Positions 2-29,090 of a DNA stretch of 35,316 nt are shown here, piece by piece. Source of the DNA: Candidatus Micrarchaeota archaeon (lineage in GTDB: Archaea > B1Sed10-29 > JAJRYS01); the NCBI GenBank assembly GCA_964496415.1, contig CAZBZN010000006.1, positions 1 through 35,316 on the forward strand, given 5' to 3'. The notes beneath the pieces were generated by a model. That model saw only the letters and a program-made list of their open reading frames with translations, was not told the origin of the DNA and made no database searches. A program made the translations under genes and the position numbers. Numbering within the stretch: position 1 is the first letter of the stretch; each line of letters starts with the position of its first letter.

Positions 2-1516
2 TATTATAGTTACTGCTAATCCAATTATTTTCTTTTTAATATTTTTATCCAGTTTTTTTCTTTCAATTTTTTGTTCTTGTTCTTCTTTTTTCAATACTCC
101 AGTGTCTACTAAGTAATCTATTGCAAATGAAATAAGTTCTTTTGAGTATTTCATTTCTGAGGAAAGTTTTTCAAGGTCTACTTCTCCTTTTTCTTCTTTT
201 ATCTTTTGCAGTACTTCATTTATGAAAGGATCTTTGACTTCTTCTTTTAGGATGTTGTACTTACCGCTTATTACTTCTTCTTTGATTAGTTTTTCTCCTT
301 TAGTAATTTCTTTTGTAAGGGTTTTAGCTTTTAATTGAACTATGAATAAGACTATTGCTGCTGTTGAAAGGACTAATATTAAGTATAAAAAGTAATGACT
401 TTCTCCAATTTCTTTAACCCATTTAGTGCTTTCATAAAAGTCTTCTGTCGTGTTTCCTTTAAGGGTAATTGTTTTTCCAGTAGGCTCTTCAAAGATTATT
501 TTATAACCTGGACTGCTTTTTATTCCAGCATAAGGATCAATGTCCTGCCAGTAATTATAGTATGCTCTTATCCATGAGTACATTTTTGAGTCTTTTTTCC
601 CGATTATTACTTTGCAGGGAAGTTCAAGTTTTTTACAGAGTTCTTTTGCGTAAGCAGTCATTCCAAGACTGTCTTTTTCACTTTCAAGGTTGACTTTTTT
701 TATTAAAGCAAATTCAGGGTCAGTGCTTTTTTTAGCATCTCTTAAAGCATTTAATAAGGTCTTTAGTTTGTCACCTGAATTAGTTACTTGCCTTACTCTC
801 CCGCTTGTTGTTATTATCTTATTAAAAGTTAATGGGTAAAGTTCTGTAGGGTAATCCTTTTTCTGCGTGGTGGAGTAAAAAGGATAAAAGTACACGTCGT
901 AATAGAATTTTTTGCCAGGTTCTAAGTTTACTGTTATCATAAGAGAATAACTTTCAGATGAAGTGACAGGAATCCCACTTACTGGAAGAGGATAACTTGC
1001 TTTCACGCCAAGACAAGGCCCTGCAAGTCCTTTTGAAAATACTAAGTAGTTTTCTTTTTTCTTGCTTAAAGCTGATGGAAAAAGAATACTGCCACTGTTA
1101 ATCAACCTTATAGGATAGCTTATTGATATTGTTTTTTTTCTTTTTCCAAGATTTATTACTTCGATTCTCGTTTTCACGTACTCATCATTGAATTCTATGT
1201 TTTCTTTTATGTTTATGTCTTCTTTTAAGTTTTCAAACTCAAACAAGTACCTGTTTTTTAACCCGCTTAGCATTTCTTCTTTTATTGTTGGCGAGAAAGT
1301 ATAAGCTTTTCCAGAAATCGACACTACTGGAACTACATTTATCTCATACGCATTGTTTATTATAACTGGTTTTGAGAGCACTGCAGGTGCTTTTGCAACA
1401 TAGTTTTCTCCTACTATTATGAATCCTTCTTCATGAAGCCCAAGACTTTTTATCGCGAGACCCTGGCTTGATAGGATTAAGATGATTATGATCATGTGGG
1501 CTTTTTTTATTTTCAT
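2..1516 (-). CDS. Secreted/membrane-anchored protein with degenerate transglutaminase-like domain (partial, runs off the left edge; not in ORF track)
   Basis: ATG at 1516 overlaps the thpR stop (ATGA). Signal peptide MKIKKAHMIIIILILSSQGLA. The same frame gives ...DSLGMTAYAKELCKKLELPCKVIIG...MYSWIRAYYNYWQDIDPY (TGase-like spacing), a TM helix YFLYLILVLSTAAIVLFIV, and a second hydrophobic stretch at the edge. I translated the two ends by hand; the middle was not checked codon by codon. Confidence 0.75.
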   Translation of the reverse strand, partial: MKIKKAHMIIIILILSSQGLAIKSLGLHEEGFIIVGENYVAKAPAVLSKPVIINNAYEINVVPVVSISGKAYTFSPTIKEEMLSGLKNRYLFEFENLKEDINIKENIEFNDEYVKTRIEVINLGKRKKTISISYPIRLINSGSILFPSALSKKKENYLVFSKGLAGPCLGVKASYPLPVSGIPVTSSESYSLMITVNLEPGKKFYYDVYFYPFYSTTQKKDYPTELYPLTFNKIITTSGRVRQVTNSGDKLKTLLNALRDAKKSTDPEFALIKKVNLESEKDSLGMTAYAKELCKKLELPCKVIIGKKDSKMYSWIRAYYNYWQDIDPYAGIKSSPGYKIIFEEPTGKTITLKGNTTEDFYESTKWVKEIGESHYFLYLILVLSTAAIVLFIVQLKAKTLTKEITKGEKLIKEEVISGKYNILKEEVKDPFINEVLQKIKEEKGEVDLEKLSSEMKYSKELISFAIDYLVDTGVLKKEEQEQKIERKKLDKNIKKKIIGLAVTII

Positions 1517-2052
1517 AATTCCACCTCAAACAAGGTCTCGTAGGTAGGACCTGCCTTATTTAATGTGCTTTTTATCAGTTCTATCTTATTAACCTTAACT
1601 TCTAATTTTAAGCTCTCGGCTAATTCCAATATTTTGTTCACGAGTTTTTCATCTGGTTTTTTCTTACATCTTGCAAGAGTGATGTGTGGAATGAATTCTC
1701 TTTTTTCTTTTAAGAAACCTATTTTTTCAAGCTTTTCTTCTAACTGTTTTTGAAGCTTGTTTAGTTCGTTAGCTTCTGCTTTTAGAAAAATCACTCTTAT
1801 GAAGCTCTTGCTTGGGAAAAAACCGACTCCTGTTACTTTTACTTTAAACGGGCGCTCTTTTATGGTTTTTAAAATTTTAGTTACTTCGTCGTATTGGCTT
1901 TTGCTTATTTCTCCTAAGAACTTTAAGTTAATATGAAGGTTTTCAGGCTCTACTGCTTTTATTCCCTTTTCTTTTTTAAGCAGATCTAGTATTTCGATTA
2001 TTTTTTCGTTACTTGGGATTCTTATTCCTATAAATGCTCTCATGTTATTCAT
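1513..2052 (-). CDS. thpR: RNA 2',3'-cyclic phosphodiesterase (2H family, LigT/ThpR)
   Basis: MRAFIGI start (ATG 2043 is an alternative start), ENLHINLKFLG, FIPHITLAR, KSTL...GPTYE. Confidence 0.92.
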   Translation of the reverse strand: MNNMRAFIGIRIPSNEKIIEILDLLKKEKGIKAVEPENLHINLKFLGEISKSQYDEVTKILKTIKERPFKVKVTGVGFFPSKSFIRVIFLKAEANELNKLQKQLEEKLEKIGFLKEKREFIPHITLARCKKKPDEKLVNKILELAESLKLEVKVNKIELIKSTLNKAGPTYETLFEVEL

Positions 2053-2078
2053 AAGGAGCGCTGGGTTTAAAATTTCTT

Positions 2079-2759
2079 CTAAATTCCTCTAATCTCTACT
2101 TTTTTGACATAAGCTTTCATTATTTCAGCAAATTCCTTAAGTTTTTTTGGAGGATAAGGGACAACATGGTTTGCTGCCAGCGTGTGTTTGTTTCTGAATT
2201 GCTGAAGGTAGTATTTTTCAGCTCCTTTTATTAGTTCCCCTATTTCATGAAAGTCTTGTTCTTTTAATGCTGGAAAGACAGTTGTTCTAAACTCATATTC
2301 TGGAGCTTTTTTCATTATTAATCCAATGCTTGAGGCTATTGCTTTTTCATCAACTTTGACTCCTGCTATTAATTCATATTTTTTTAGTGGTGCTTTGACA
2401 TCCATTGCAACATAATTAACTATTCCTAAGTCAAGGATTTGCTTAAGCATTTTAGGATTTGACCCATTAGTGTCAAGTTTTATTAAAAAACCCAGTTCAC
2501 GTACTTTTTCAATGAATTCAATCAAATCAAACTGAAGAGTGGGTTCTCCTCCTGTTATTTCAACAGCATCAATTACTCCTTTTCTTTTTTCCAAGAAAGA
2601 GAAAACTTCTTTTTCAGGAATCAAATGTTGTGAGCCGTTTATTATTTCAAAATTATGGCAGTAAGGGCATCTAAAGTTGCATCTTGGAGTAAATACTATG
2701 CTGCAGGCTTTTCCAGGGTAGTCTATGAAGGAGAGTTTTTCAAACCCAGCGATTTCCAT
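2079..2759 (-). CDS. nrdG: Anaerobic ribonucleoside-triphosphate reductase activating enzyme (radical SAM)
   Basis: SFIDYPG, CNFRCPYCHN (CxxxCxxC), ITGGEPTLQ, KLDTNGSNP, YEFRTT; lies downstream of nrdD. Confidence 0.93.
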   Translation of the reverse strand: MEIAGFEKLSFIDYPGKACSIVFTPRCNFRCPYCHNFEIINGSQHLIPEKEVFSFLEKRKGVIDAVEITGGEPTLQFDLIEFIEKVRELGFLIKLDTNGSNPKMLKQILDLGIVNYVAMDVKAPLKKYELIAGVKVDEKAIASSIGLIMKKAPEYEFRTTVFPALKEQDFHEIGELIKGAEKYYLQQFRNKHTLAANHVVPYPPKKLKEFAEIMKAYVKKVEIRGI

Positions 2760-2769
2760 GGTTTCACTG

Positions 2770-2898
2770 TCACATGCTTATTTTTACGTATGCCCTGTTC
2801 TTGAATTCTTCTTGTTTTCCATCATTCCACTGGTTTACAGGCCTTAAATAACCAACAATCCTTGAATACACCTCACATTTTGTTCTTTTCCCGTTCAT
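2770..2898 (-). CDS. Stand-alone glycyl-radical domain of class III RNR, 42 aa (MNGKRTKCEVYSRIVGYLRPVNQWNDGKQEEFKNRAYVKISM); not in ORF track
   Basis: Hand translation. Carries the NrdD radical motif YSRIVGYLRP and W-N-x-G-K-x-x-E-F. SD GGAGGTGA lies 7 nt before the ATG, which overlaps the nrdD TGA. Confidence 0.93.
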   Translation of the reverse strand: MNGKRTKCEVYSRIVGYLRPVNQWNDGKQEEFKNRAYVKISM

Positions 2899-4928
2899 TT
2901 TAAAGTCACCTCCACTTTTGCAACGTCTTTTACACCCATTTCAGCATCGCATATTGGGCAGTATTCATGTTCTCCAGGAAGATACCCGTGAATAGGACAA
3001 ATACTAAAAGTAGGAGTAATTGAAAGGTAAGGAAGTTGGTATCTTGAAAATACTTTACGTACTATTGTTTTTGCAGCTTCCTTGCTTAATCTTTCACCTA
3101 TAAAAGCATGGTATACTGTTCCTCCAGTGTATTTTGTTTGCAGTGGGTCTTGATGGTCAAGGATTTCAAACAAGTCAGCATTCCAATCAACAGGAGGAAG
3201 ACTTGAATTAGTGTAATAAGGTTTTGCTCCTTTTTTTACCTGTTCTTCGTTAGCCACGATTATTTCAGGATATTTTTTCTTATCTATTCTTGCCAGCCTG
3301 TAACTGGTTCCTTCTGCTGGAGTAGCTTCTAAGTTGAATAATTGACCTGTTTCTTCTTGGAACTCGCTTATTCTTTCTCTCATGAACTCAAGAACTCTTA
3401 TAGCAAATTCATGTCCTTGTTTTGATATGATGCTTTCACCTAACAAGTTTAAGCAGGCCTCGTTCATGCCTACTAAACCAATTGTTGAGAAGTGATTTTT
3501 CCAGTACTGTCCATAAGCTTGTTTTATTGATCTAAGGTAAAATCTTGAATAAGGATAAAGTCCCTGTTCAGTGTATCTTTCAATTATTTTTCTTTTTATT
3601 ATCAGAGAGTCTTTTGCAAGAATCATTAATTGTTCCAGTTTTTCGAAGAATTCAGTTTCATCTTTACTTAGGAAACCAATTCTCGGAAGGTTTATTGTTA
3701 CTACCCCTATGCTTCCAGTTAATGGGTTTGCTCCAAACAACCCGCCTCCTTTTTTCTTAAGTTCACGGGTGTCTAATCTTAGCCTGCAGCACATTGACCT
3801 TGCGTCTTCAGGTTTCATGTCAGAATTCACGAAATTAGCAAAGTAAGGAATGCCATACTTTCCAGTCATTTCCCAAAGAGCATCTAGTCTTTCATCATCC
3901 CATGGGAAGTCTTTTGTAATGTTATAAGTTGGAATTGGAAAAGTAAATGGTCTTCCGTTAGCGTCTCCTTCCATCATTACTTCTGCAAAAGCCCTGTTTA
4001 TCATGTCCATTTCTTCTTGGAATTCTCCATAAGTTTTGTCCATTATTTTTCCGCCGATTACTACTCCAACATTTTTTAGGTAAGAAGGAGGTTCTAAGTC
4101 AAGGGTTATGTTAGTGAAGGGAGTTTGGAATCCAACTCTTGTAGGGACGTTAACATTGTAAATGAACTCTTGCATGATTTGTTTTACTTCTTTATATTCA
4201 AGTTTATCATAGTAAATGAAAGGAGCTATGAGAGTATCAAAATTTGAAAATGCTTGAGCTCCTGCTGCTTCTCCTTGTAATGTGTAGAAAAAGTTAACTA
4301 CTTGCCCTAACAAGGCTCTTAAGTGTTTAGCTGGTCTTGAACTTATTTTTCCAGGCACTCCTGTAAAGCCGGTTATTATTAGGTCTTGAAGGTCCCAGCC
4401 AACGCAGTAAGCTGCCAGTGTTCCTAAGTCATGAATGTGGAAGTCTCCTTCTTTGTGTGCTTTGGCAATGTTCTCTGGATAGACTTTATTAAGCCAGTAG
4501 TTTGCTACTATTGTTGAAGAAATGTGAAAGTTTAATCCTTGTAAGGAGTAGGTCATGTTGGCATTTTCTTTTACTCTCCAATCTATTTGGTGTAAGTATG
4601 AGTCAATGATGTCAAAGTCATGCATCATTGCAGCGAACTCTCTTAGTTCAGCATGCTTTTTTCTATAGATTATGTATGCTTTTGCTGTTGCAGCATGCCC
4701 TTCTTCTATCAGTACTTTTTCAACAACTTCTTGGATGTCTTCAATTCCAGGAATGTTTATTTCATCGTACTTTTTGCTTAGTTTTTCAACAACTATTTCT
4801 GTGAGTCTTTCAGCTTCTTTTCTGTCTTTTCCCCCTACTGCTTGCGCTGCTTTAAAAATAGCATCTGTTATTTTTGTCTTGTCAAAGTCAACGATTCTAC
4901 CGTCTCTTTTTCTTACTTTGGTGAGCAT
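2895..4928 (-). CDS. nrdD: Class III anaerobic ribonucleoside-triphosphate reductase, catalytic subunit lacking the C-terminal glycyl-radical domain
   Basis: N-terminal ATP cone (VRKRDGRIVDFD), HIHDL, AYCVGW, finger loop RSMCCRL, NLEATPAEGTSYRLA, YYTNSS, YTGGTVYH, Zn site CPIH...CPIC. It then stops with no RxxGY motif. Confidence 0.95.
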   Translation of the reverse strand: MLTKVRKRDGRIVDFDKTKITDAIFKAAQAVGGKDRKEAERLTEIVVEKLSKKYDEINIPGIEDIQEVVEKVLIEEGHAATAKAYIIYRKKHAELREFAAMMHDFDIIDSYLHQIDWRVKENANMTYSLQGLNFHISSTIVANYWLNKVYPENIAKAHKEGDFHIHDLGTLAAYCVGWDLQDLIITGFTGVPGKISSRPAKHLRALLGQVVNFFYTLQGEAAGAQAFSNFDTLIAPFIYYDKLEYKEVKQIMQEFIYNVNVPTRVGFQTPFTNITLDLEPPSYLKNVGVVIGGKIMDKTYGEFQEEMDMINRAFAEVMMEGDANGRPFTFPIPTYNITKDFPWDDERLDALWEMTGKYGIPYFANFVNSDMKPEDARSMCCRLRLDTRELKKKGGGLFGANPLTGSIGVVTINLPRIGFLSKDETEFFEKLEQLMILAKDSLIIKRKIIERYTEQGLYPYSRFYLRSIKQAYGQYWKNHFSTIGLVGMNEACLNLLGESIISKQGHEFAIRVLEFMRERISEFQEETGQLFNLEATPAEGTSYRLARIDKKKYPEIIVANEEQVKKGAKPYYTNSSLPPVDWNADLFEILDHQDPLQTKYTGGTVYHAFIGERLSKEAAKTIVRKVFSRYQLPYLSITPTFSICPIHGYLPGEHEYCPICDAEMGVKDVAKVEVTLK

Positions 4929-4967
4929 GACTAATCACTTTAAGTCTTTTTTCAGGAGAATTTGGTT

Positions 4968-5078
4968 TTACTGGAGGGGAATGCTGGGTGAGCCTTCTTC
5001 ATCCAGTGGTTTTGTTTCTTTGAAGTAAACTTTTATTACTTCTCCTCTTACATTTTCAATTGTTTTTACTGTAAGCAT
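4968..5078 (-). CDS. Putative 36-aa leader/small protein upstream of nrdD (MLTVKTIENVRGEVIKVYFKETKPLDEEGSPSIPLQ); not in ORF track
   Basis: ATG 5078 preceded by strong SD GGAGGGG, stop TAA at 4968-4970; fills the gap between the nrd promoter and nrdD. Confidence 0.55.
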   Translation of the reverse strand: MLTVKTIENVRGEVIKVYFKETKPLDEEGSPSIPLQ

Positions 5079-5092
5079 TTTCTCCCCTCCAG
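4971..5092. repeat. Inverted repeat flanking the leader ORF
   Basis: ctggagggga (4971-4980) and tcccctccag (5083-5092) form a perfect 10-bp inverted repeat, extendable by atgct/agcat across a 4-nt bulge. Confidence 0.75.
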
Positions 5093-5094
5093 CA

Positions 5095-5141
5095 TTAGGC
5101 TGGTTAACAATCCTAAATCAACTATTATTTATTAATAAATA
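5095..5141 (-). promoter_or_regulatory. Putative nrd operon promoter with palindromic sites
   Basis: Perfect AT palindrome tatttattaataaata (5126-5141) containing a TATA-like box. Imperfect 22-bp palindrome ttaggctggttaacaatcctaa (5095-5116, 9/11 pairs) at the expected transcription start. Confidence 0.5.
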
Positions 5142-5157: not shown

Positions 5158-7005
5158 TTAGAATAGTTTTAAGAATAAGATTTCCTTACTTTTCAAAAGA
5201 TTTTTGTCACTAGTTTCGTAGAATGAGCCTGCATTATACAAAGGCTGTAAGGCAGAAAGCACGTCAATAAGCTTTTCATCATCAAGCTCTTGAAAGAAAG
5301 AAGACCTTGAAATATCCTCTTCAATCCCATGCTTTTTATTCTCAGCAGTGAATCTAGTAAGAGCATTAACGTTGTCAGACTCTCCTACAAGAACATGAAT
5401 CCCTTCTTCTTTTTTAAACTCCCTCAGCTTTTTATGAGTAAATCTTAGAATTCTTTCAGAAAAAACAAGACACTCTTTGTCATAATTCTCTTTTTTCAAG
5501 AAGAGCTTTGCTGCTGCAGAAAGACCTGTGAACAACACTACTCCTTTAAATCTTTCAATTTCAGCAACTGGTTTGCCTTCAAAACTCTGAGCAAGAAACT
5601 CAAGCATTTTCGTCTTGTAAGCTTTTTCTTTTACGAGTTTAAGTTTTAGTTTTACAGTTTCTTTAGTAAGTTCAAGCAATCTGCCTAATTTTTCATAAAA
5701 AGCATTATCATCAGGGTTTAATTTAGCTACTTTAGGCAAGTTAAGTGAAACTGTTTGAATAATGCCAGAACCAAGCCCATGCAATGAGTTCTCTTGAAAA
5801 GTCAAGTTTTCAACAAGAGAACTGTTTTTCATTTCTTGTCTTATATAATAAACAGGCCTTAGTTCTTTATCAATGAGTTTCTCAGGAACTTTGTTTCTAA
5901 GCTTCAAGCACACTGAAGGATGTCTGAATTCTCTTCCACTGTAATCTCCTTTTTTCATCATGTCTATGAAAACCTCAGCCAAAAGCAAGGCTTCATCATA
6001 ATAATTTTCATAAGTGTTTTTCTCTTCTCCTTTAGGGCCTATTGCTTTTTCTTCTTTCAAGAACTCAGGAAGCTCTACTTCAAGGTTTATTGCAAAAGTG
6101 TTATCATAATAATTAGCCCTGTTCAATTCATAAAGAAAAGTCTGGCAATACTGTTTTACCTGTTTTTTGCTTTTTCTACTAATGAAAGGCGCTAAGAAAA
6201 AATTAAAGAAGTCAAACCCGATTCCTCTTGCAACATAACTCTTTGCAGTGGTTAGAAACCTTGCGGCATGACTCATAGCCACTTCAGGATTTTTAGCAGG
6301 ACCAGTAGTAACCACTCCTGGCAAGACAAAACCATGCTTCAACAACACTCTCAAGTCAGGGTTAAACGCATAAGGCAAAGTAGCAAAATCCTCAATAGCA
6401 TGAATGTACAAGTCAGAACTAAGATAAGCAAGGCTAACCTCTTTTGAAAGAAGCTTGTTGATTACAAATTCCTCCATTATCCTATTGCCAAAAAGCTCAT
6501 TAAGCTCACCAGGGCTTTTTACTTCTTTCTTATCAATGATTCTCTTAATGTCAAACACTGGAATTCCAGCACGAGTATAATTGCTTTGAGCATTGATTAA
6601 TTTTCTTTCAAGCAACTCAGCATTAACCAACTCCCTAATCAAACTTGTTGAAGCAGTTCTAATTTGAGCCCTTCTGATTTCTTTTTCAACTTCTTTAGCA
6701 ATATCTTCTGCTATTGCTTTTGGTATTCTTGTTTCCTTTATGAGAGACTTTGTAATCTTATCCCTATTAAAAGTTTCAAGCACATGACTAGAAGTGATAA
6801 CTTCAATGGAATGATAACTTTCAAACTGAGAAGCAGCTTCACTGTCTATTTCTTTTAAAACACTTAGTATCTTTTTGTTGATCTCTAAGTCAGTTGCTTT
6901 TTCAGAAAGCTTTCCTTTAAGTCTTAAAGCTGCTTCTGATGCAATCCAAAAGCTTACTCCAGCTTGCCGGCATTTTTCAATAACAACATTCTCTGAAACA
7001 GCCAT
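5158..7005 (-). CDS. NrdD-like protein with tandem ATP-cone-like domains, apparently catalytically inactive
   Basis: ATP cone VITSSHVLETFNRDKITKSLIKET...LIRELVNAELL, YTRAGIPVFD, GPAKN, GIGFDFFNFFLAPF and TVSLNLPK resemble archaeal NrdD. No finger-loop Cys, Zn site or RxxGY motif. Confidence 0.75.
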   Translation of the reverse strand: MAVSENVVIEKCRQAGVSFWIASEAALRLKGKLSEKATDLEINKKILSVLKEIDSEAASQFESYHSIEVITSSHVLETFNRDKITKSLIKETRIPKAIAEDIAKEVEKEIRRAQIRTASTSLIRELVNAELLERKLINAQSNYTRAGIPVFDIKRIIDKKEVKSPGELNELFGNRIMEEFVINKLLSKEVSLAYLSSDLYIHAIEDFATLPYAFNPDLRVLLKHGFVLPGVVTTGPAKNPEVAMSHAARFLTTAKSYVARGIGFDFFNFFLAPFISRKSKKQVKQYCQTFLYELNRANYYDNTFAINLEVELPEFLKEEKAIGPKGEEKNTYENYYDEALLLAEVFIDMMKKGDYSGREFRHPSVCLKLRNKVPEKLIDKELRPVYYIRQEMKNSSLVENLTFQENSLHGLGSGIIQTVSLNLPKVAKLNPDDNAFYEKLGRLLELTKETVKLKLKLVKEKAYKTKMLEFLAQSFEGKPVAEIERFKGVVLFTGLSAAAKLFLKKENYDKECLVFSERILRFTHKKLREFKKEEGIHVLVGESDNVNALTRFTAENKKHGIEEDISRSSFFQELDDEKLIDVLSALQPLYNAGSFYETSDKNLLKSKEILFLKLF

Positions 7006-21379: not shown

Positions 21380-22903
21380 ATGGCTTATATTGATGAGTTA
21401 ATCAAGAAATCAAAGTCAAGGCAGGAAAAAGAAAAGAAGCCGGCAGAAAAAACAGAGGTTGAAACAAAGAAAAAATTGGTTGCTTCTTATGGAAGCGTGA
21501 AGATTTATAAGGTTGAAGGAGAGCCGCTGCTTCATTATACGGTTCCTGTGATTAAGCCTTCTGGTCCTGAAAAAACGATAATAAAGCTGATACAAGAGGC
21601 AGCGACCAGGCTTATTACTATTTCTCCAGAGGAGATAAGAGACCCTCAGCGTAGGAGGAGTTTTTATTTTCAAAGGGTAAAGGAGATAATTGAGTCTTCT
21701 CCTGAGTTAGGTGTTCCAAAGACTAAAGTTGACTTTTATGCTGACATGGTTGTTAGGGAAATGATTGGTTACGGTGTTTTAGATGTTCTTACTCAGGATG
21801 ACCAGCTTGAGGAAATAATGGTTATTGGCCCTAACAAGCCTGTTTATGTTTTTCATAGGAAGTATGACATGATGAAGACAAATATTGTTTTTGCTGATGA
21901 TGAAGAGATAAAAAATATTGTTGATAGGATTGCAAGGCAGGTTAATAGAAGAGTTGACATGCAGACTCCTTTGCTTGACGCAAGGCTTCCTGATGGTTCA
22001 AGAGTTAATGCCACTATTCCCCCGATTTCGTTAGGCGGGACTACTTTGACTATTAGGAAGTTTAGGACTGATCCTTTTTCAATGATTGACTTGATAATGA
22101 ATAATACTCTTTCTTCAGAAGCAGCTGCTTTTTTGTCTTTGGCAGTTGATGGTTTTGGAGCAAAACCAGCTAACATGCTTATTTCAGGAGGAACTGGAAG
22201 TGGAAAGACTACTACTCTTAATGTTTTGGCTTCTTTTATTCCAAAGCGTGAGAGAATAATTTCAATAGAAGACACTGCTGAGTTGAATCTTCCAATAGAG
22301 CATTGGATTCGTTTTGAGACAAGACCACCTGGCTTGGAAGGAACAGGTGAAATAACAATGGATATTCTTGTTAAGAATGCTTTGCGTATGAGACCTGATA
22401 GGATTATTGTTGGTGAGATAAGGCATGCTGAGGCTTTTACTTTGTTCACTGCAATGAATACTGGTCATGATGGAAGTCTTGGTACTGTTCACTCTAACTC
22501 TGCTCATGAGACAATAATAAGGCTTCTTAATCCTCCCATGAATGTTCCAGCGATAATGATTGATGCGCTTGATATAATAGTTGTTCAAAAAAGGATTCAT
22601 GACAGGAGAAAAGGCACTATAAGAAGGGTTACTGAGATTGCTGAGGTTTTAGGAGTTCCTGAAGGAAACCCTGAGCTTCAGATGCTTTACCAGTGGGATG
22701 CTAAAACAGATTCTCTTAAAAGGACAAACGTTCCGTCAAAGTATTTGAAGGAGTTATGCGAGTACACTGGCCTTAATGTCGAGCAGTTGGAAGAAGAGGT
22801 TAACGCAAGGAAAGCTTTATTTGAGTCTTTAGCTGAAAAAGGAATAAGAAGCATGAGAGAAGTAATTCAAGAGTTTGAAAAGTTTAAGGAGAGTAGGAAA
22901 TGA
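21380..22903 (+). CDS. Type IV pilus assembly ATPase (CpaF/TadA/VirB11 family)
   Basis: DARLPDGSRVNA, TIRKF, GGTGSGKTT, IEDTAEL, LRMRPDRIIVGEIR, MNTGHDG. Confidence 0.95.
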   Translation: MAYIDELIKKSKSRQEKEKKPAEKTEVETKKKLVASYGSVKIYKVEGEPLLHYTVPVIKPSGPEKTIIKLIQEAATRLITISPEEIRDPQRRRSFYFQRVKEIIESSPELGVPKTKVDFYADMVVREMIGYGVLDVLTQDDQLEEIMVIGPNKPVYVFHRKYDMMKTNIVFADDEEIKNIVDRIARQVNRRVDMQTPLLDARLPDGSRVNATIPPISLGGTTLTIRKFRTDPFSMIDLIMNNTLSSEAAAFLSLAVDGFGAKPANMLISGGTGSGKTTTLNVLASFIPKRERIISIEDTAELNLPIEHWIRFETRPPGLEGTGEITMDILVKNALRMRPDRIIVGEIRHAEAFTLFTAMNTGHDGSLGTVHSNSAHETIIRLLNPPMNVPAIMIDALDIIVVQKRIHDRRKGTIRRVTEIAEVLGVPEGNPELQMLYQWDAKTDSLKRTNVPSKYLKELCEYTGLNVEQLEEEVNARKALFESLAEKGIRSMREVIQEFEKFKESRK

Positions 22904-24039
22904 AGAGGATTGGAAAGCTTAAGAAGCTTTTGAAAAAGGAAAAGAAAAAGAAGGAAGAAATCAAGCTTGAGAAAGAGCTTCCTGAAGAGGATGTGCTTGC
23001 TAAAGTAGTTGAAAGAATGAAAGAGAAGTACGTTAAGGAGGGATTAATAAAAGAAAAAGAGGAAGAGGTTGCTTCTGCTGACTTGAAGAAAATGATTGAA
23101 GGAGCTAAAAAAATAGAGTACGGTGCTTCTCCAAGAGAACTTACTCTTTATGATAATTCTCTTGTCAGAGCCTTTGGTAAGATGTACCTTGCTTTAGAAG
23201 CTCCTTTGTCTTTATTCGTTAAGTTTTTCAAAAAGAAGATGGGTGAAAGCCTTAAGTATGACTTGCTTGCTTCTGGGATGAATTATTCAATAGAGCAATA
23301 CCTTGCGTTGGTTTTTTCAGCTTCTTTTTTTACTTTTATAATTTCTTTTGTTTTGTTCCTGCTTCTGTGGATGGCTAAAGCAGTAAGCATTGTGATGCTT
23401 GCTTTTATTCCTCCAGTAATCACTTTGCTTGTGATGTTTTTGATGTTAACTATTCCAAGAAGCAAGGCTAATAAGATTGCTAACGAGATTGACAAGGAAC
23501 TTCCTTTTGCTTTAAGGCATATGAGTATTGAAATCAGGGCAGGGGTGAGTATTTACAAGACTTTAGAGTCTGTTGCAATGTCTGGTTATGGTCCTTTAAG
23601 CACAGGGCTTAAATGGGTTTTAAGCCAGGTTGAGAAAGGAAAAGCAACAGAAGACGTTCTTGAGGAATGGGCGCAGAGGACTAAGTCAGAGGCTTTAAAG
23701 AGAGTGGTTTCTCATATTGTGAGGGCTTTAAGGACTGGTGGGAATCTTTCAGACATAATGGTTACTATTGCAGAAGATGTTTCTTTTGAAAGAAGAGCAA
23801 AGATAGCTGACTTTGCTGAAAAACTAAACCTCATAGGATTATTTTTAATGATGTCCATAGTTGTCCTTCCAGTAATGGTGTCTATTTTGACTACTATTGC
23901 AAGCGCTCCTTCAATAAGCCAGTATCTTGGAATGCTTTCATTTTTCTCACCATCATTTTTAATGTTGCTTTACTTTGTCTTGGTTCCTGGAATGATGTTC
24001 GTGTTCATGTATTATATTAAAAGCGCTGACCCTGGGTGA
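22900..24039 (+). CDS. Pilus membrane platform protein (TadB/TadC, T2SSF family)
   Basis: IDKELPFALRHMSIEIRAG, GYGPLS, RTGGNLSD, multiple TM helices. Confidence 0.9.
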   Translation: MKRIGKLKKLLKKEKKKKEEIKLEKELPEEDVLAKVVERMKEKYVKEGLIKEKEEEVASADLKKMIEGAKKIEYGASPRELTLYDNSLVRAFGKMYLALEAPLSLFVKFFKKKMGESLKYDLLASGMNYSIEQYLALVFSASFFTFIISFVLFLLLWMAKAVSIVMLAFIPPVITLLVMFLMLTIPRSKANKIANEIDKELPFALRHMSIEIRAGVSIYKTLESVAMSGYGPLSTGLKWVLSQVEKGKATEDVLEEWAQRTKSEALKRVVSHIVRALRTGGNLSDIMVTIAEDVSFERRAKIADFAEKLNLIGLFLMMSIVVLPVMVSILTTIASAPSISQYLGMLSFFSPSFLMLLYFVLVPGMMFVFMYYIKSADPG

Positions 24040-24043
24040 TTGA

Positions 24044-24919
24044 TTGAGTTTGCTGAAAAAGTACGAAGAAACAGTTGAGTTTGCTGGAATAAAGCTTCCT
24101 GGAAAAGTTTTAGCTTTCCTTACTATAATGTCTGCTGTTGGAGTTAGCTTTGTGACTTTGTTTTTTGACCCAATGCTTTCAGTATTAATGGCTATTCTGC
24201 TTATTGATATTGGTTTTGGTCTTCCTTTCTTCTTAGCAGAGGCAAAAATAGCTAAGATTGAAAGAAGGCTTCCTGACGTGCTTCATCATATTGGAACTAC
24301 TTTAAAGACAGGCGGAACTATTGAAGCTGCTTTGAAAGAAGTTTCAAGGATTGATTATGGGCCAATAACTGTTGGAGTAAAGCAAATGCTGAAGAGGATA
24401 AATGAGGGCCAGACTTTTGAAGAAGCTTTTTCAGAGTTTGCTTTGAATTCAAGGTCAAAGCTTTTGAAAAAAGCAGCTGTTATCATTATTGCTGCTAAAA
24501 AATCAGGAGGAGCTTTGGTAGAAACTCTTTCAGCAATGGCAGAGGACTTTAGAGCTCTTTACAGGCTTGAGAGAGAAAGAAAGACTAAGACTTTCATGCA
24601 GTTCTTGTTCATAATAACAGCTGGTTGTTTTGTAGCTCCTTTTGTCTTTGGAATCGTGAAGTCAGTGCTTGGGATCTTGCTTCAGGTTGGCGGGAGTACA
24701 GCCATGTATGCTGAGACAGTAAGAATAGTGTCTCAGTTTGACTTTTTGTTTAAGGCTTACTTAATGCTTGAGTCAGCACTTTCAATGATGGGCGCTGTTC
24801 AAGTGAGGGAAGGGAAGCTTTCAAAAGCAGTGATTTACATTCCAATAGGCATGCTTGCAAGTTACGTGATTTACGTCCTGACTTCTTCAGTATTCTTGTC
24901 TTTCTTAATGGGTTCATGA
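24044..24919 (+). CDS. Second pilus membrane platform protein (T2SSF family)
   Basis: IERRLPDVL, DYGP, KSGGALVETL, TM helices; TTG start. Confidence 0.9.
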   Translation: MSLLKKYEETVEFAGIKLPGKVLAFLTIMSAVGVSFVTLFFDPMLSVLMAILLIDIGFGLPFFLAEAKIAKIERRLPDVLHHIGTTLKTGGTIEAALKEVSRIDYGPITVGVKQMLKRINEGQTFEEAFSEFALNSRSKLLKKAAVIIIAAKKSGGALVETLSAMAEDFRALYRLERERKTKTFMQFLFIITAGCFVAPFVFGIVKSVLGILLQVGGSTAMYAETVRIVSQFDFLFKAYLMLESALSMMGAVQVREGKLSKAVIYIPIGMLASYVIYVLTSSVFLSFLMGS

Positions 24920-24984
24920 AGTTTGATAGCAAGGTTTTTAAAGCAATATGTTGTTTTTTAAACTAAATGTTTGGAGGGTTTTCA

Positions 24985-25290
24985 ATGAAAAAAGGACAAG
25001 GAGCTTTAGAGTATTTGATTATCATTGCTGCTGTCTTGGCTATTGCAGCAATAGTGGTTTTGTTCCTTTCAGGAGCTTTCAAAAGCGCTAGCACTGGCGG
25101 TGACGTTGGAAAATGTAAGCAAGCAGCTTCACAGTGTGCTACCGAACTTGCTACTTCTTCAGGAGCAACTTGTAGTTATTGTGATGAGGCTTGTTCAGGA
25201 ACTGGGTTAACGACAACTGACACAGCAACTTACCCAACAGCTGTTGATGCATGTAAGGCTGGAAAACCAGAGGTAATAGTTTCAGCATGA
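24985..25290 (+). CDS. Probable major type IV pilin (class III signal peptide)
   Basis: MKKG/QGALEYLIIIAAVLA. Has its own TATA (tttttaaa near 24935-24942), SD GGAGGG at 24973 and a downstream T-tract. Confidence 0.88.
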   Translation: MKKGQGALEYLIIIAAVLAIAAIVVLFLSGAFKSASTGGDVGKCKQAASQCATELATSSGATCSYCDEACSGTGLTTTDTATYPTAVDACKAGKPEVIVSA

Positions 25291-25325
25291 AACCTTCTTG
25301 TTTTTTATTTTTGTTTTGTTTTTAG
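25291..25325 (+). terminator. Oligo-T archaeal terminator after the major pilin
   Basis: Several T-runs (ttgttttttattttttgttttgttttt) immediately after the stop. Confidence 0.55.
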
Positions 25326-25331
25326 TTAAGC

Positions 25332-26165
25332 ATGCTTGAAGAAGTTGCTTTTTTACTGGCGTTTTTTTTACTTGGCATAGCTAGTTATTATGATTTTAAG
25401 AGTCATGAAGTTCCTGATTTTTTATGCTATTTGTTTTTGTTTCTTGGCTTGGTTTTTTTCGCAGTAAACCTTTTCACTCATTGCTCTAACTTGGTTTTGT
25501 TGTCAGCGTTCAGTGCTGTGGTTTTTTCTCTTGCCATGAAGTTTTTCGGAGGCTGGGCTTTAGGGGATGTTTTTATTTTTTCAGGCATCAGCTTAATGCT
25601 TCCTGAGTTTAATGGAGTAGCGTTTTTCCCATTTTTGGTTTTTTCAGCAGGAGTTCTTTCTTCAGCTCCTTTTGTCTTAGGTTACTGTGTTTTCGAAGTG
25701 TTTAAAAATGATAAAGCTAAGCAGTCTTTTCTCTCGCTCATTAGAAGAAGGTTTTTCAAAGAGCTTGGCTTTGCATTAGTGTTGTTCTTAGTGTTTTTGT
25801 TTATTGAAGGAGTTGAAACAGGCATTGGTGCTGCTTTAGGTTATTTCTTGGTTTTTTTTGCTGTTTCTTTTTATAAGGCTTCAAAAGATTTTGTGCTAAG
25901 AGAAGTGAAGAAAGTTAATGAGTTAATGGAAGGGGACATTCCTGCGGTAAGCATTGACGAGAAAGGAAGGATTGTAAAGGGATTTTCCAGAAATCTGGTG
26001 GTTAGTTCAATGAATGCTGATGGCTTGACTTTGGATCAAATTAAAAAGTTGAAGAGTCTTGGAGTCAGTGAGCTTGTGGTTAGGAAAAGCATTCCGTTCA
26101 TTCCTCTTCTTTGGGCTGGTTTGGTTTTAGCTGGCTTGATAGTTTTTTATATAAGGGTTTTTTAA
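25332..26165 (+). CDS. Prepilin peptidase (A24, EppA-like)
   Basis: ASYYDFKSHEVPD, GGWALGD (GxGD variant), ELMEGDI...GLT insertion, C-terminal IPFIP; polytopic membrane protein. Confidence 0.85.
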   Translation: MLEEVAFLLAFFLLGIASYYDFKSHEVPDFLCYLFLFLGLVFFAVNLFTHCSNLVLLSAFSAVVFSLAMKFFGGWALGDVFIFSGISLMLPEFNGVAFFPFLVFSAGVLSSAPFVLGYCVFEVFKNDKAKQSFLSLIRRRFFKELGFALVLFLVFLFIEGVETGIGAALGYFLVFFAVSFYKASKDFVLREVKKVNELMEGDIPAVSIDEKGRIVKGFSRNLVVSSMNADGLTLDQIKKLKSLGVSELVVRKSIPFIPLLWAGLVLAGLIVFYIRVF

Positions 26166-26494: not shown

Positions 26495-26884
26495 ATGAAG
26501 TCTCAAGTAACTGTTGAATACTTGCTTATCCTTGTGGTAATGCTTTTGCTTTTTTCAAGTGTTTCCATGAACTTGGTGGAAGAAAGTTTAAAGACTTCAA
26601 TGCAAGTGCAGACAAAACAAAGCATTGCTTTTGTTAATTCTTCTCTTGTTTCAGCAGCTGGCTTGCTTTTAACTCAGGCTGAAGGTGCTTCTGTCTTGGT
26701 TGAGGTTAAGGCGCCTGCTGACTGCAGCATAGAAGTAAATAATTATTACTTAAAGTATGTTTGTTCTGGTTATTCTGAAGAGTATAATGGAACTGTTGTT
26801 GGTTCAGGTTTAGGAGTATCTTATTCTCCTGTGGGGGTAATTAATAATGGTGAGAGGGGAGAGATTAAAGTTCAAAAAGTTTAA
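26495..26884 (+). CDS. Minor pilin
   Basis: MKS/QVTVEYLLILVV class III signal peptide. Confidence 0.85.
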   Translation: MKSQVTVEYLLILVVMLLLFSSVSMNLVEESLKTSMQVQTKQSIAFVNSSLVSAAGLLLTQAEGASVLVEVKAPADCSIEVNNYYLKYVCSGYSEEYNGTVVGSGLGVSYSPVGVINNGERGEIKVQKV

Positions 26885-27233
26885 GTCTCAGGGAAGCTAT
26901 GAGCTATTATTAGTGATTGGGGTAGTGTTAGTTTTGTTGTTTTCGATAATGGATGGCTTTTTCTCTCAAGCAAGCCCAGCAGTTGTTTTGACTGCGTTGA
27001 AGGATGGTGCTTTAAGAATTAATTTTGAAAAGCAGGTAATGTTTAAAAGGAAGTGTGACACACCAGTTGTAAATTCCAGTGAAAATGGTTTTGTGGTTGC
27101 TGGCTCTTGTTTGAATTCTTCTGATGCAATTACTTTGGCTAATCTTGTTGAAGAAGAACAATGTGGAGTTTCTCCTGATAATGATAATGTGATTGATTGT
27201 TTTGGAAACCCTGTTGTTGAGGTGAGCTCTTGA
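26847..27233 (+). CDS. Minor pilin
   Basis: ...KKFKS/QGSYELLLVIG; start codon uncertain. Confidence 0.78.
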   Translation: MVRGERLKFKKFKSQGSYELLLVIGVVLVLLFSIMDGFFSQASPAVVLTALKDGALRINFEKQVMFKRKCDTPVVNSSENGFVVAGSCLNSSDAITLANLVEEEQCGVSPDNDNVIDCFGNPVVEVSS

Positions 27234-27598
27234 AAGGAGTCGTGTCTTTGGATGCTTTAATAATGTTTGTTTTGTTGTTTTTGTTAGTGTTATGGCTTCA
27301 GAATCTTGCTTTTTCTTATTTGAAAAGTTCAGAGGATTTCGGAAGGCAGGTTCAATGCAGTGGGTTTGCTCAGCAAGCTGGGTCTGAAGCTAATGCTTTT
27401 TACGCTGCAAGTCCTTCTAATGATGCTTATTTGAATTATTCTGGCGAGGCTGTTTTCCTTTCAGGGCGTAAAGATGTTTCTGTTAAAAAAGAAGCTGGTT
27501 CAAGTTCGTTGGTTGCTTCTGTTGATGGTTTTGATTGTTATTATGATGTTGTTGATGGTGTTTATTATGACACTGATTTGAAGGTGTTTAAGGAATGA
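27230..27598 (+). CDS. Minor pilin-like protein
   Basis: MKG/VVSLDAL plus hydrophobic helix; TTG start with SD GAGGTGA. Confidence 0.75.
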   Translation: MKGVVSLDALIMFVLLFLLVLWLQNLAFSYLKSSEDFGRQVQCSGFAQQAGSEANAFYAASPSNDAYLNYSGEAVFLSGRKDVSVKKEAGSSSLVASVDGFDCYYDVVDGVYYDTDLKVFKE

Positions 27599-27972
27599 AA
27601 GCGCAGGTGTTTTCTTTGGATGCTTTGATTGCGTTGGTTTTGGTAATAGTAATTCTTTCTATTGTTGTTGAGAGGACCACTGAAGCAAGAAGCGTAGATG
27701 TGCATTATCTTGAGTTAAAGCAGTTGGCTGATGATTTTTCCCAGATTGCTGTTAAAAGGAGCCTTACTAATGGCGAACCAAATGTTATTAGTTCTTCAAA
27801 GCTTCAGGAATTTTCTTCTAAGATGAGTTCTCTCTCTTATGATTATGAGATAGAATTGTCTACTGGTGAAAAAATTGGGGATTGTTCAGGTCATGATGAA
27901 GTAGCTGTTTCAAAAAGAGCAGTGGTCATTGATGGGGTTTCTGGCTGGCTGGAGGTGAAAATCTGCTCATGA
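27595..27972 (+). CDS. Minor pilin-like protein
   Basis: MKA/QVFSLDAL plus hydrophobic helix. Confidence 0.78.
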   Translation: MKAQVFSLDALIALVLVIVILSIVVERTTEARSVDVHYLELKQLADDFSQIAVKRSLTNGEPNVISSSKLQEFSSKMSSLSYDYEIELSTGEKIGDCSGHDEVAVSKRAVVIDGVSGWLEVKICS

Positions 27973-28265
27973 AAGGATTTTTCATTTCAATGGATGCGGC
28001 AATGGCTGTAATAGTAGTGTTGATTTTTTCAATGACTGCTTTGTTAGTGTTAAATTCAAGCCATGATGATGGAGTAGTTTACTTGTCTAGGCTGGCTAGG
28101 GATTACTATGAGGTTAAGAGAATCGATCCTTCTGCTGACTTGTCATGGATTAATACTTCATGTGATAATGCTCCTGTTGTTGTTTCAAAGAAAGCTTACT
28201 ACTATGATTCTGAAGCAAATGAAGTAAAAGCTGAGCTTGTGAAAGTATGCGGGGTATATGGGTGA
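27969..28265 (+). CDS. Minor pilin-like protein
   Basis: MKG/FFISMDA plus hydrophobic helix. Confidence 0.75.
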   Translation: MKGFFISMDAAMAVIVVLIFSMTALLVLNSSHDDGVVYLSRLARDYYEVKRIDPSADLSWINTSCDNAPVVVSKKAYYYDSEANEVKAELVKVCGVYG

Positions 28266-28269
28266 TGTG

Positions 28270-28689
28270 ATGAAGGGTTTTATAATTACTGGTATTGCTT
28301 TGGTTTTAGGCGTGATCATGCTTGTGTTTGTTAATTATTCTGTAGTAGCGGGTAAAGTTTATTCTTCTAAAGACCAGGCTTTAATGCTTATTGATGAGAC
28401 TTATAATAGGAAAGTTGATGTGCTTAGGATTGTTGAGGCTGCTTCTAATGATTCAGTAGAGGAGTCAAAGTCAGCGTCGCTTTCTTGCGATTCTGCTGTC
28501 AGTGCTTTAGTTCAAAGGCTTGATGAAGTTCTTTCAAGTCCCTTGCTTTCAGAAAATGGCGTGAATACTACTTATTATGTGAATGTTGTTAATAATTGCC
28601 CTTCTTCTTTTACTGTTGAAGTTTCTTTGAATTTTACTTCAAGAATAATGAAAGACAGCGCAGTTTTTTCTAAGACTTACAATTATTAG
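28270..28689 (+). CDS. Minor pilin-like protein
   Basis: MKG/FIITG plus hydrophobic helix; ATG 28270 with SD GGTGA. Confidence 0.68.
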   Translation: MKGFIITGIALVLGVIMLVFVNYSVVAGKVYSSKDQALMLIDETYNRKVDVLRIVEAASNDSVEESKSASLSCDSAVSALVQRLDEVLSSPLLSENGVNTTYYVNVVNNCPSSFTVEVSLNFTSRIMKDSAVFSKTYNY

Positions 28690-28757
28690 GCTTTAACTGG
28701 TTTTGTCTCTTTAAAGTTAAGAATTATTTTTTAACAAGAGATTTTATTTCCATATTC

Positions 28758-29090
28758 ATGAGAAAAGCTTTTTTATTTTTGGGTTTTGCAGTACTCGGCT
28801 TGTTTTTAAGTTATTATTTTTCAGATGACAGATATGAAAAAGTAGACCCTAAAGCTCTTGCTGAAAACTGCTATGGCAGAGTGGAATTAGACGGCAGGCT
28901 TCTCAGGGTCTTTTACTCTAAAAAGGGTAACTTGATAGGAGTTGTTTCAAGCAATGGTTATCATTTTCTTGTGTTGTTGAATGGTTATAATTATTCTAAA
29001 GGGGACTTGTTGACTGTGAAAGGTTTTGCTTCAAAGTATTCTGGTTCTTGCTGGGTTTTTCCTAAGCAGGTGAAACTCAATGATTTTTGA
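28758..29090 (+). CDS. Membrane-anchored OB-fold-like protein
   Basis: N-terminal TM/signal; VELDGRL..V..SKKGN, KGDLLTVKGFASKY OB-type pattern. Confidence 0.6.
   Translation: MRKAFLFLGFAVLGLFLSYYFSDDRYEKVDPKALAENCYGRVELDGRLLRVFYSKKGNLIGVVSSNGYHFLVLLNGYNYSKGDLLTVKGFASKYSGSCWVFPKQVKLNDF

Follow-up and report, generated by a model that had tools for sequence, protein, structure and literature searches.

Can the radical-bearing end of an anaerobic ribonucleotide reductase be encoded as a protein of its own, or does a catalytic chain without it reflect an assembly error or a decaying gene? The question is raised by a 35,316-nucleotide (nt) stretch of Candidatus Micrarchaeota DNA (contig CAZBZN010000006.1 of assembly GCA_964496415.1; here called the window), in which nrdD, the gene that encodes an anaerobic ribonucleotide reductase (RNR) of class III, ends before its glycyl-radical loop and this loop is encoded by a separate open reading frame (ORF) of 42 amino acids (aa), followed by the activase gene nrdG. 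All three genes are on the minus strand in a head-to-tail arrangement, and all coordinates given are those of the window (Table 1). We report that the split is real, conserved and, by every sequence criterion, functional. Gene anatomy, conservation, purifying selection and predicted docking are described below, and from these we infer activity, radical site and stoichiometry. The locus very probably encodes an obligate two-chain class III RNR that is made by translational coupling and would work like the single-chain enzyme.

The two ORFs divide one protein family between them. The large chain (the body) matches PF13597 (NRDD) with residues 121-663 over profile positions 1-530 of 562 (E = 1.8e-183, 611.7 bits, cut-off 26.2) and its best NCBIfam model, NF006126, over positions 2-653 of 684 (1056.5 bits, cut-off 548); it also scores 533.6 bits against TIGR02487 (cut-off 326.35), and its residues 152-661 align with residues 100-609 of the T. 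maritima NrdD (4COI). The 42-aa ORF (the peptide) aligns with the end of both profiles, covering 529-560 of the 562 positions of PF13597 (E = 8.5e-11) and 649-682 of the 684 positions of NF006126. This segment, roughly the last 32 profile positions, is exactly what the large chain is without, and the full NrdD family profile is covered by body and peptide jointly and by neither singly. NRDD is the only Pfam family matched by the peptide at E≤0.01, and it does not qualify as a glycyl radical domain of the pyruvate formate-lyase (PFL) type. Specifically, the R-V-x-G-Y radical glycine motif is located not on the NrdD polypeptide, the stop codon of which comes 17 residues past the Zn motif, but on the separate ORF. 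On the body, M379, C380 and C381 of the finger loop as well as the Zn-site residues C644, H647, C657 and C660 show no variation across a 46-row alignment (A2). The 8-nt Shine-Dalgarno site of the peptide gene, GGAGGTGA, lies within the 3' end of nrdD and looks stronger than the G-T-G-A-T that precedes nrdD itself, while the nrdG product matches TIGR02495 (NrdG2; E = 1.8e-62, 210.1 bits, cut-off 131.15) and carries the radical-SAM motif C-x3-C-x2-C at residues 27-34. A preliminary description of this DNA had outlined an NrdD with ATP-cone, S-M-C-C-R-L loop and Zn site that ends soon after, and a separate 42-aa radical ORF with its own Shine-Dalgarno site and an ATGA overlap ahead of nrdG; each of these features was located and the arrangement was confirmed in every detail.

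Contigs of two sequencing runs from different studies, X1 (possibly the source run of the assembly) and X2, cover positions 2000-5100 with two and four substitutions, respectively, and no gaps, and a contig of a third run, X3, covers 2845-2969 without differences; the comparison was made on contigs rather than raw reads, in which setting rare variants would stay hidden. The indel at 2890-2910 for which the preliminary description had advised a search is absent from all three.

The split was also followed through 31 genomes of the phylum, 19 of which have peptide matches. A separate radical piece is present in 12 of the 31: ten have the tail in its own open frame of 49-67 aa (G000, the window's assembly, and G002, G012, G014, G018, G023, G024, G026, G027 and G029), and in two the tail of a divergent NrdD occupies its own frame of 89-90 aa (G003, contig C3, and G028). 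Seven genomes have the fused gene only, and three (G000, G018 and G003) have a split and a fused copy together. The window locus has an ATGA junction, while at the other split loci the two frames overlap by 8 nt (L004 and L007), the stop is directly followed by an ATG in the same frame (L002 and L005), or a spacer of 12 to approximately 95 nt intervenes (L006, L008, L011, L014, L017, L018, L021 and L024). In all 12 other split loci examined, a purine-rich ribosome-binding site precedes the peptide ATG by 5-12 nt, so that the conserved split with its own initiation signal, which the preliminary description had proposed to seek in relatives, is indeed found there. The order nrdD, peptide, nrdG holds in 12 of the 13 split loci, the remaining one being truncated by its end, and all 22 tail matches in the 31 genomes lie directly behind an nrdD, with no extra copies. 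Because the junctions differ and yet the outcome is the same, a shared sequencing artefact and a frameshifting signal are both excluded as the common cause. In the locus with the longest spacer (L006 in G012; ~95 nt) the spacer contains another ORF of 30 aa.

At some of these loci the cut falls within the Zn site. The body ends in C-P-Y-x and the peptide begins with M-C in L014, L017 and L018 (G024, G026 and G023), which places the last Zn ligand on the peptide; in L024 (G003, contig C3) the second C-x2-C pair is on the peptide, and the 89-aa radical piece of L021 (G028) has an extra Cys-rich N-terminal part. Where NrdD is cut in this way the Zn could clamp both chains together.

The peptide core is under strong purifying selection. 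Over 28 codons in 18 split loci (153 pairs) the nonsynonymous proportion (pN) is 0.14 against a mean synonymous proportion (pS) of 0.90, the synonymous sites being saturated. In an alignment (A1) of 70 of 120 listed free-standing peptides, E9, Y11, S12, R13, G16, Y17, R19, P20, N25 and R35 show no variation and R5, T6, C8, V10, V15, L18, V21, Q23, W24, G27, K28, E31 and F32 are conserved in at least 90%, while the N-terminal lead and the C-terminal end vary freely. Body and peptide thus retain all family-invariant residues. As to Cys8, it was considered as an obligatory fourth Zn ligand and rejected, since Thr stands in its place in the split locus L008 and in several fused relatives that keep C-x2-H.

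To model the complex, body residues 100-677 (46-row alignment) and the peptide (70-row alignment) were used in three runs with three controls. The preliminary description had suggested a prediction of NrdD, peptide and NrdG together; run as body plus peptide, the pair docked, with an interaction prediction score from aligned errors (ipSAE) of 0.90 in all three runs against 0.00 for the best control and a predicted local distance difference test (pLDDT) value of 84-85 for the partner. The docking mark is reached by 116 of 157 solved complexes and by two of 215 mismatched pairs, counts that are only rough here since we used our own alignments. The model has 162-168 contacts, at least 95% of which are common to all runs. 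In it, peptide residues 8-11 pair with body residues 640-644, Cys8 is placed against C644 and body residues 654-657 beside the Zn site, and the peptide also contacts body residues 120-126, the flap that holds N-x-N. According to the available portion of a study of P. copri NrdD, this flap forms a bridge among substrate, ATP-cone linker and radical domain in that enzyme, and its glycyl radical domain is highly mobile, moving as a rigid body (PMC11226230). The peptide is thus predicted to dock where the covalent tail sits in single-chain NrdD.

How the split and fused states are related was addressed with the 120 clusters closest to the body (65-100% identity), of which 26 are tail-less and 94 fused; the tail-less clusters were called split from the absent motif alone, and one row, P0235, is labelled partial by its source (119 clusters without it). 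A FastTree tree of the NrdD barrels, with the tail columns removed, requires at least seven changes of state, or at least six without the partial row, and five of these are forced by well-supported branches; shuffled states required 24 changes on average and none of 500 shuffles was as low. The window belongs to a clade of six split rows and one fused row (support 99), the fused P0122 and the split P0123 are only 0.06 apart, and split-only clades last over branch lengths of 0.1-0.4. Therefore, fission and fusion have each occurred repeatedly, and the two states appear to be functionally close. Four residues separate C-x2-C from E-V-Y-S-R in 80 of the 94 fused proteins; at the window locus the same interval holds 17 residues of body tail plus 8 of peptide lead, and split bodies extend 1-39 residues past C-x2-C. 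The few fused proteins with linkers of 21-34 residues, P0122 included, look like re-fusions of split genes. Another feature of the close NrdD homologues is that several among P0124, P0126, P0150, P0159 and P0225 are 985-1045 aa long, one with an intein Pfam family, and that the NrdD match of L006 and L007 begins only at residue 381 (L006, L007 and L008 are listed with possible intein cases), which suggests inteins near the finger loop in long NrdD homologues.

The preliminary description had cautioned that the architecture may not be unique, and this was borne out: the layout recurs widely, in DPANN archaea, in Patescibacteria and further bacteria, and on viral contigs. Among protein clusters of 23-74 aa, all 207 candidates match at E≤1e-3 and all 120 listed carry PF13597, so that at least 207 clusters consist of free-standing peptides of this type. 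Many of these free-standing peptides are on long contigs (up to 203 kb); most listed ones lack a source name and two are labelled hypothetical protein, and the names that are given include metagenome-assembled genomes (MAGs) of Nanoarchaeia, Nanoarchaeota and Aenigmarchaeota. A search among 1.84 billion library representatives yielded 2964 proteins at E≤1e-3, and the best 150 of these are 42-192 aa long (149 of them ≤113 aa). Among the best 80 loci from 185,579 species genomes, classed by script, 13 are split, 49 fused and 11 unclear, and in 7 the motif was missed. The order nrdD, peptide, nrdG is seen in ten of the 13 split loci (Hippea, Micrarchaeota, Falkowbacteria, two Patescibacteria, an archaeon, Nanobdellota, two Woesearchaeota and a MAG labelled Gammaproteobacteria); one, in a Bacillota MAG, has the order nrdD, nrdG, peptide, and two have no nrdD within 2.5 kb. 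Six unclear loci have frames of 130-206 aa that end in the radical motif with no nrdD nearby, and in two others (L077 and L101) nrdD itself lies in two frames; these look like real frameshifts. The window is apparently one archaeal member of a far wider, undescribed architecture.

Open frames of 104-206 aa that end in the NrdD radical motif are seen at L073, L074, L084, L094, L106 and L110, from Desulfobacterales and other Deltaproteobacteria MAGs, and at L090. They share a C-D-x-C-F-like motif upstream and have no nrdD nearby, and they may represent a larger autonomous radical protein family.

Not all tails elsewhere are bound to one nrdD, as some bacterial genomes show. Whole genomes were inspected for five cases of orphan tails (G041-G045). 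Two of them, G043 (L115/L121) and G045 (L116/L122/L126), have a complete fused NrdD together with orphan tails; in G042 a tail-less NrdD has one tail next to it, and other contigs carry two additional tails (L117, L123 and two more places); in G044 (L118/L124) the tail is 6.8 kb away from a tail-less NrdD, and in G041 an orphan tail lies beside an NrdD that matches in two pieces. Moreover, viral contigs hold 419 relatives, and in 61 of the best 80 viral loci (L127-L206) a short tail ORF is present and the 2.5 kb that were fetched contain no nrdD; of the others, one has nrdD near, 11 are fused, four are cut by contig ends, two are of middle length and one was missed by the pattern. The stand-alone viral radical-tail ORFs are 41-128 aa long.

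Taken as a two-chain enzyme, the system would operate as follows. Ribosomes that end the 677-aa body would restart at the overlapping ATG, aided by the strong Shine-Dalgarno site, and produce the 42-aa peptide. The C-E-V-Y strand of the peptide would join the T-F-S-I-C strand of the Zn ribbon of the body, its R-I-V-G-Y loop would thread into the barrel, and its tail would lie over the barrel top and touch the N-x-N flap, like the covalent C-terminus of single-chain NrdD. NrdG would then take a hydrogen from Gly16, and the radical would shuttle to the finger-loop Cys, so that nucleotide reduction starts. Several points limit this or weigh against it. The docking result speaks for likeness and may reflect memory of solved single-chain NrdD structures, and finger-loop residues are missing from the listed contacts of the model. 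The slippery heptamer at the junction makes some fused product possible. Finally, contig C38 of the same assembly (locus L022) carries a fused single-chain nrdD (693-aa frame, short linker, 57% identical to the window NrdD) with its own nrdG next to it; this contig is 3.5 kb long and its G+C content, 0.365, agrees with the genome, and the split enzyme therefore need not be the sole or main reductase.

The same C38 pair bears on the notion that the split is an artefact or the remains of a decaying gene, i.e. that an indel in the A run or a recent frameshift has left a dead nrdD while the fused copy does the work. One added A in this run would indeed join both frames, but the gap-free contigs from two studies and the third without a difference, the splits with differing junctions in 11 other genomes of the phylum, and the purifying selection on a peptide core in which the family-invariant residues are all kept leave this with almost no credence; in addition, the frameshift-like cases L077 and L101 look different, with nrdD itself in two frames. 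Alternatively, ribosomes might slip by programmed -1 frameshifting on T_TTA_AAA, with the upstream GGAGG as stimulator, to give one single-chain NrdD of 719 aa. The heptamer is in the right frame, a -1 slip would join both frames exactly, and -1 frameshifting has been demonstrated in an archaeon, as far as the accessible part of the report goes (PMC1616953). However, no structure is predicted downstream (minimum free energy -15.2 kcal/mol, z +0.72; 157 of 200 shuffled sequences form a fold that is no less stable), the heptamer is missing from all 12 other split loci, at several of these an ATG follows an in-frame stop or a spacer intervenes, which a -1 slip cannot bridge, and every one has an ATG with a well-spaced Shine-Dalgarno site. 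We therefore regard frameshifting as very unlikely and the heptamer as probably coincidental, a chance occurrence in A+T-rich DNA.

Compatible with two chains, and harder to weigh, is the idea of a replaceable radical cartridge: the split would have been kept since oxygen cleaves only the peptide at Gly16, whereupon the fragments would depart, a new peptide would take their place and NrdG would activate it, repair thus costing 42 residues; the peptide might serve the fused paralogue too. With no covalent bond joining Zn site and radical loop, the radical piece would in principle be replaceable after cleavage. Indirect support for exchange, from other lineages only, comes from NrdD-type pieces that are unlinked, in several copies or beside a complete NrdD (G042, G043, G044 and G045) and from the 61 viral loci, which speak for action in trans. 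The precedent of GrcA for PFL (PMC12288474, in the part available), the mobility of the P. copri domain (PMC11226230) and the apparently stronger Shine-Dalgarno site of the peptide gene fit this idea as well. In the phylum, on the other hand, all tail matches are directly behind nrdD with no extra copy, and the peptide is therefore first of all an obligate subunit here. The approximately 160 buried contacts in the model may make spontaneous exchange slow, and the at least six flips of state counted over 119 close homologues, where one fused and one split form are 0.06 apart, are as expected if both states are near-equivalent. DPANN genomes are known for split genes, according to the portion of the source at hand (PMC3491384), and neutral drift and fission in reduced genomes explain the repeated fission and fusion equally well. 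Selection for replacement is thus a tentative idea that we hold to be less probable than its absence. In its widest form the radical loop would be a diffusible part, synthesised in surplus, activated by NrdG, swapped out once oxygen has cleaved it and able to serve more than one NrdD body (tail-less and possibly fused paralogue), with viruses carrying only a 40-130-aa cartridge to recharge host reductases; this, too, we consider doubtful. From the preliminary description, the split class III RNR with a coupled 42-aa radical gene followed by nrdG is retained, while its suggestion of an exchangeable subunit that would limit the cost of oxygen damage stays tentative. An obligate two-chain RNR remains our preferred reading.

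Directly upstream of nrdD is an NrdD-like paralogue of 615 aa that is 25% identical to NrdD. It has a weak ATP-cone, an NrdD barrel (profile positions 7-413 of 562) and, at the N-terminus, about 70 additional residues that include one invariant Cys, and is without finger-loop Cys, Zn site and radical loop. Members are present in 29 of the 31 phylum genomes, are often unlinked to nrdD, and show 33-59% identity among full-length matches; the genomes carrying it include G006, G011 and G020, all of which are without an NrdD tail match. It has the appearance of an NrdD derivative that is conserved and catalytically dead. A role as another acceptor of the peptide was considered and ruled out, since it lacks the finger-loop Cys and the Zn site and is present in genomes without NrdD. 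The 36-aa ORF between this paralogue and nrdD has a G-rich Shine-Dalgarno-like site and gave no match in a Pfam search, and a gene for a LigT-type 2'-5' RNA ligase/phosphoesterase lies 26 nt beyond nrdG in the same orientation.

The window also encodes GatD, GatE, a threonyl-tRNA synthetase with an archaea-specific editing domain, Elp3, TrmB, a class III signal peptide pilin, an ABCE1-like protein and an eRF1-like protein. The assembly comprises 687 kb in 41 contigs (91% completeness, 36% G+C), and the host is a small-genome, DPANN-like archaeon; the sequencing runs that hold DNA of the locus are labelled hydrothermal vent metagenome, and no RNA run is listed among them. Farther along the window is an archaeal type IV pilus-like cluster with a secretion ATPase, two membrane platform genes, a class III signal peptide protein and a prepilin peptidase, after which come seven small ORFs without Pfam matches.

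Table 1. Coordinates of the split nrdD locus and of other features in the window
Feature	Coordinates	Strand	Remarks
nrdD large chain	4928-2895	-	677 aa; comprises an ATP-cone, a barrel of ten strands with the Cys finger loop, and a Zn site; without glycyl-radical loop
ATP-cone (PF03477), nrdD residues 4-93	4650-4919	-	Pfam E = 1.4e-24
Finger loop S-M-C-C-R-L, residues 378-383	3780-3797	-	presumed thiyl-radical Cys; read from sequence
Zn site C644-x2-H647...C657-x2-C660	2949-2999	-	metal binding presumed from family
Radical peptide ORF	2898-2770	-	42 aa; putative radical Gly16, codon 2853-2851, within R-I-V-G-Y motif
Shine-Dalgarno site of peptide gene	2913-2906	-	8 nt, 7 nt ahead of ATG
ATGA stop/start overlap	2895-2898	-	ATG 2898-2896, TGA 2897-2895; translational coupling
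T_TTA_AAA heptamer	2898-2904	-	-1 slippery type X_XXY_YYZ; nrdD frame, immediately ahead of stop (last two sense codons and preceding base)
nrdG activase	2759-2079	-	226 aa, radical SAM; starts 10 nt past peptide gene
Radical-SAM motif of nrdG	2658-2681	-	
LigT-type gene	1513-2052	-	
36-aa ORF	4968-5078	-	
NrdD-like paralogue	5158-7005	-	
Type IV pilus-like cluster	21380-26165	+	
Seven small ORFs	26495-29090		

In the searchable papers and solved structures the radical glycine is on the catalytic chain in every glycyl radical enzyme, GrcA being an extra copy, whereas here the sole radical site of an essential enzyme would be a peptide of 42 residues. No description of a separate NrdD radical peptide was found in the full-text literature, a scope that leaves aside subscription journals and supplements. 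Should the pair be active, the covalent link between Zn site and radical loop would be dispensable, the activase would have a natural minimal substrate that is handy for electron paramagnetic resonance, structural and mechanistic work, and repair by subunit exchange, long discussed only for PFL, would become directly testable in ribonucleotide reduction. If the radical piece is in addition exchanged as a cartridge, class III RNR would possess a repair system of the GrcA kind that spans archaea, bacteria and viruses. There are also consequences for annotation, as tail-less NrdD genes may pass as truncated or inactive while the small peptides go unnamed, and metabolic reconstructions of DPANN archaea, Patescibacteria and viruses may be distorted as a result.

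Known systems resemble the window locus in different respects. Among phages, in which introns, inteins or endonucleases are known to interrupt RNR genes, there are RNR genes that work, or possibly work, though split: Aeh1 has nrdA-a and nrdA-b, an nrdD carries a group I intron, and the nrdD of phiAS4 is in three pieces (PMC3653736). Those breaks derive from homing endonucleases or introns or are unexplained, they are elsewhere in the gene, and in the available text of that source none is described as a conserved separate radical peptide. The class II NrdJa/NrdJb of Pseudomonas aeruginosa likewise has its RNR catalytic chain divided over two successive genes, the second of which encodes the C-terminal Zn-finger part (PMC9669993, in the part available); it differs in belonging to the B12-dependent class and in that NrdJb is a folded multi-domain protein with no radical residue. 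With single-chain NrdD and NrdG, of which class III NrdD structures have been solved from T. maritima (4COI and 4U3E), P. copri (8P23) and phage T4 (1H78) as well as 9D3X, the locus shares the ATP-cone, barrel, Cys finger loop, Zn site, R-V-x-G-Y loop and adjacent radical-SAM activase. The window chain differs by a break that falls past the Zn site and ahead of the radical loop, near residues 609-612 of 4COI; PDB chains that match the peptide profile are full-length only (651 and 671 aa). GrcA/YfiD, finally, is like the peptide a small free-standing protein; it supplies a glycyl radical enzyme with the radical glycine in trans, as the peptide would. GrcA copies the C-terminus of PFL and rescues a full-length enzyme cleaved by oxygen, as described in the part of the source at hand (PMC12288474), whereas the 42-aa peptide matches only the NrdD family and stands beside an NrdD without a radical loop of its own, which makes it an obligate subunit.

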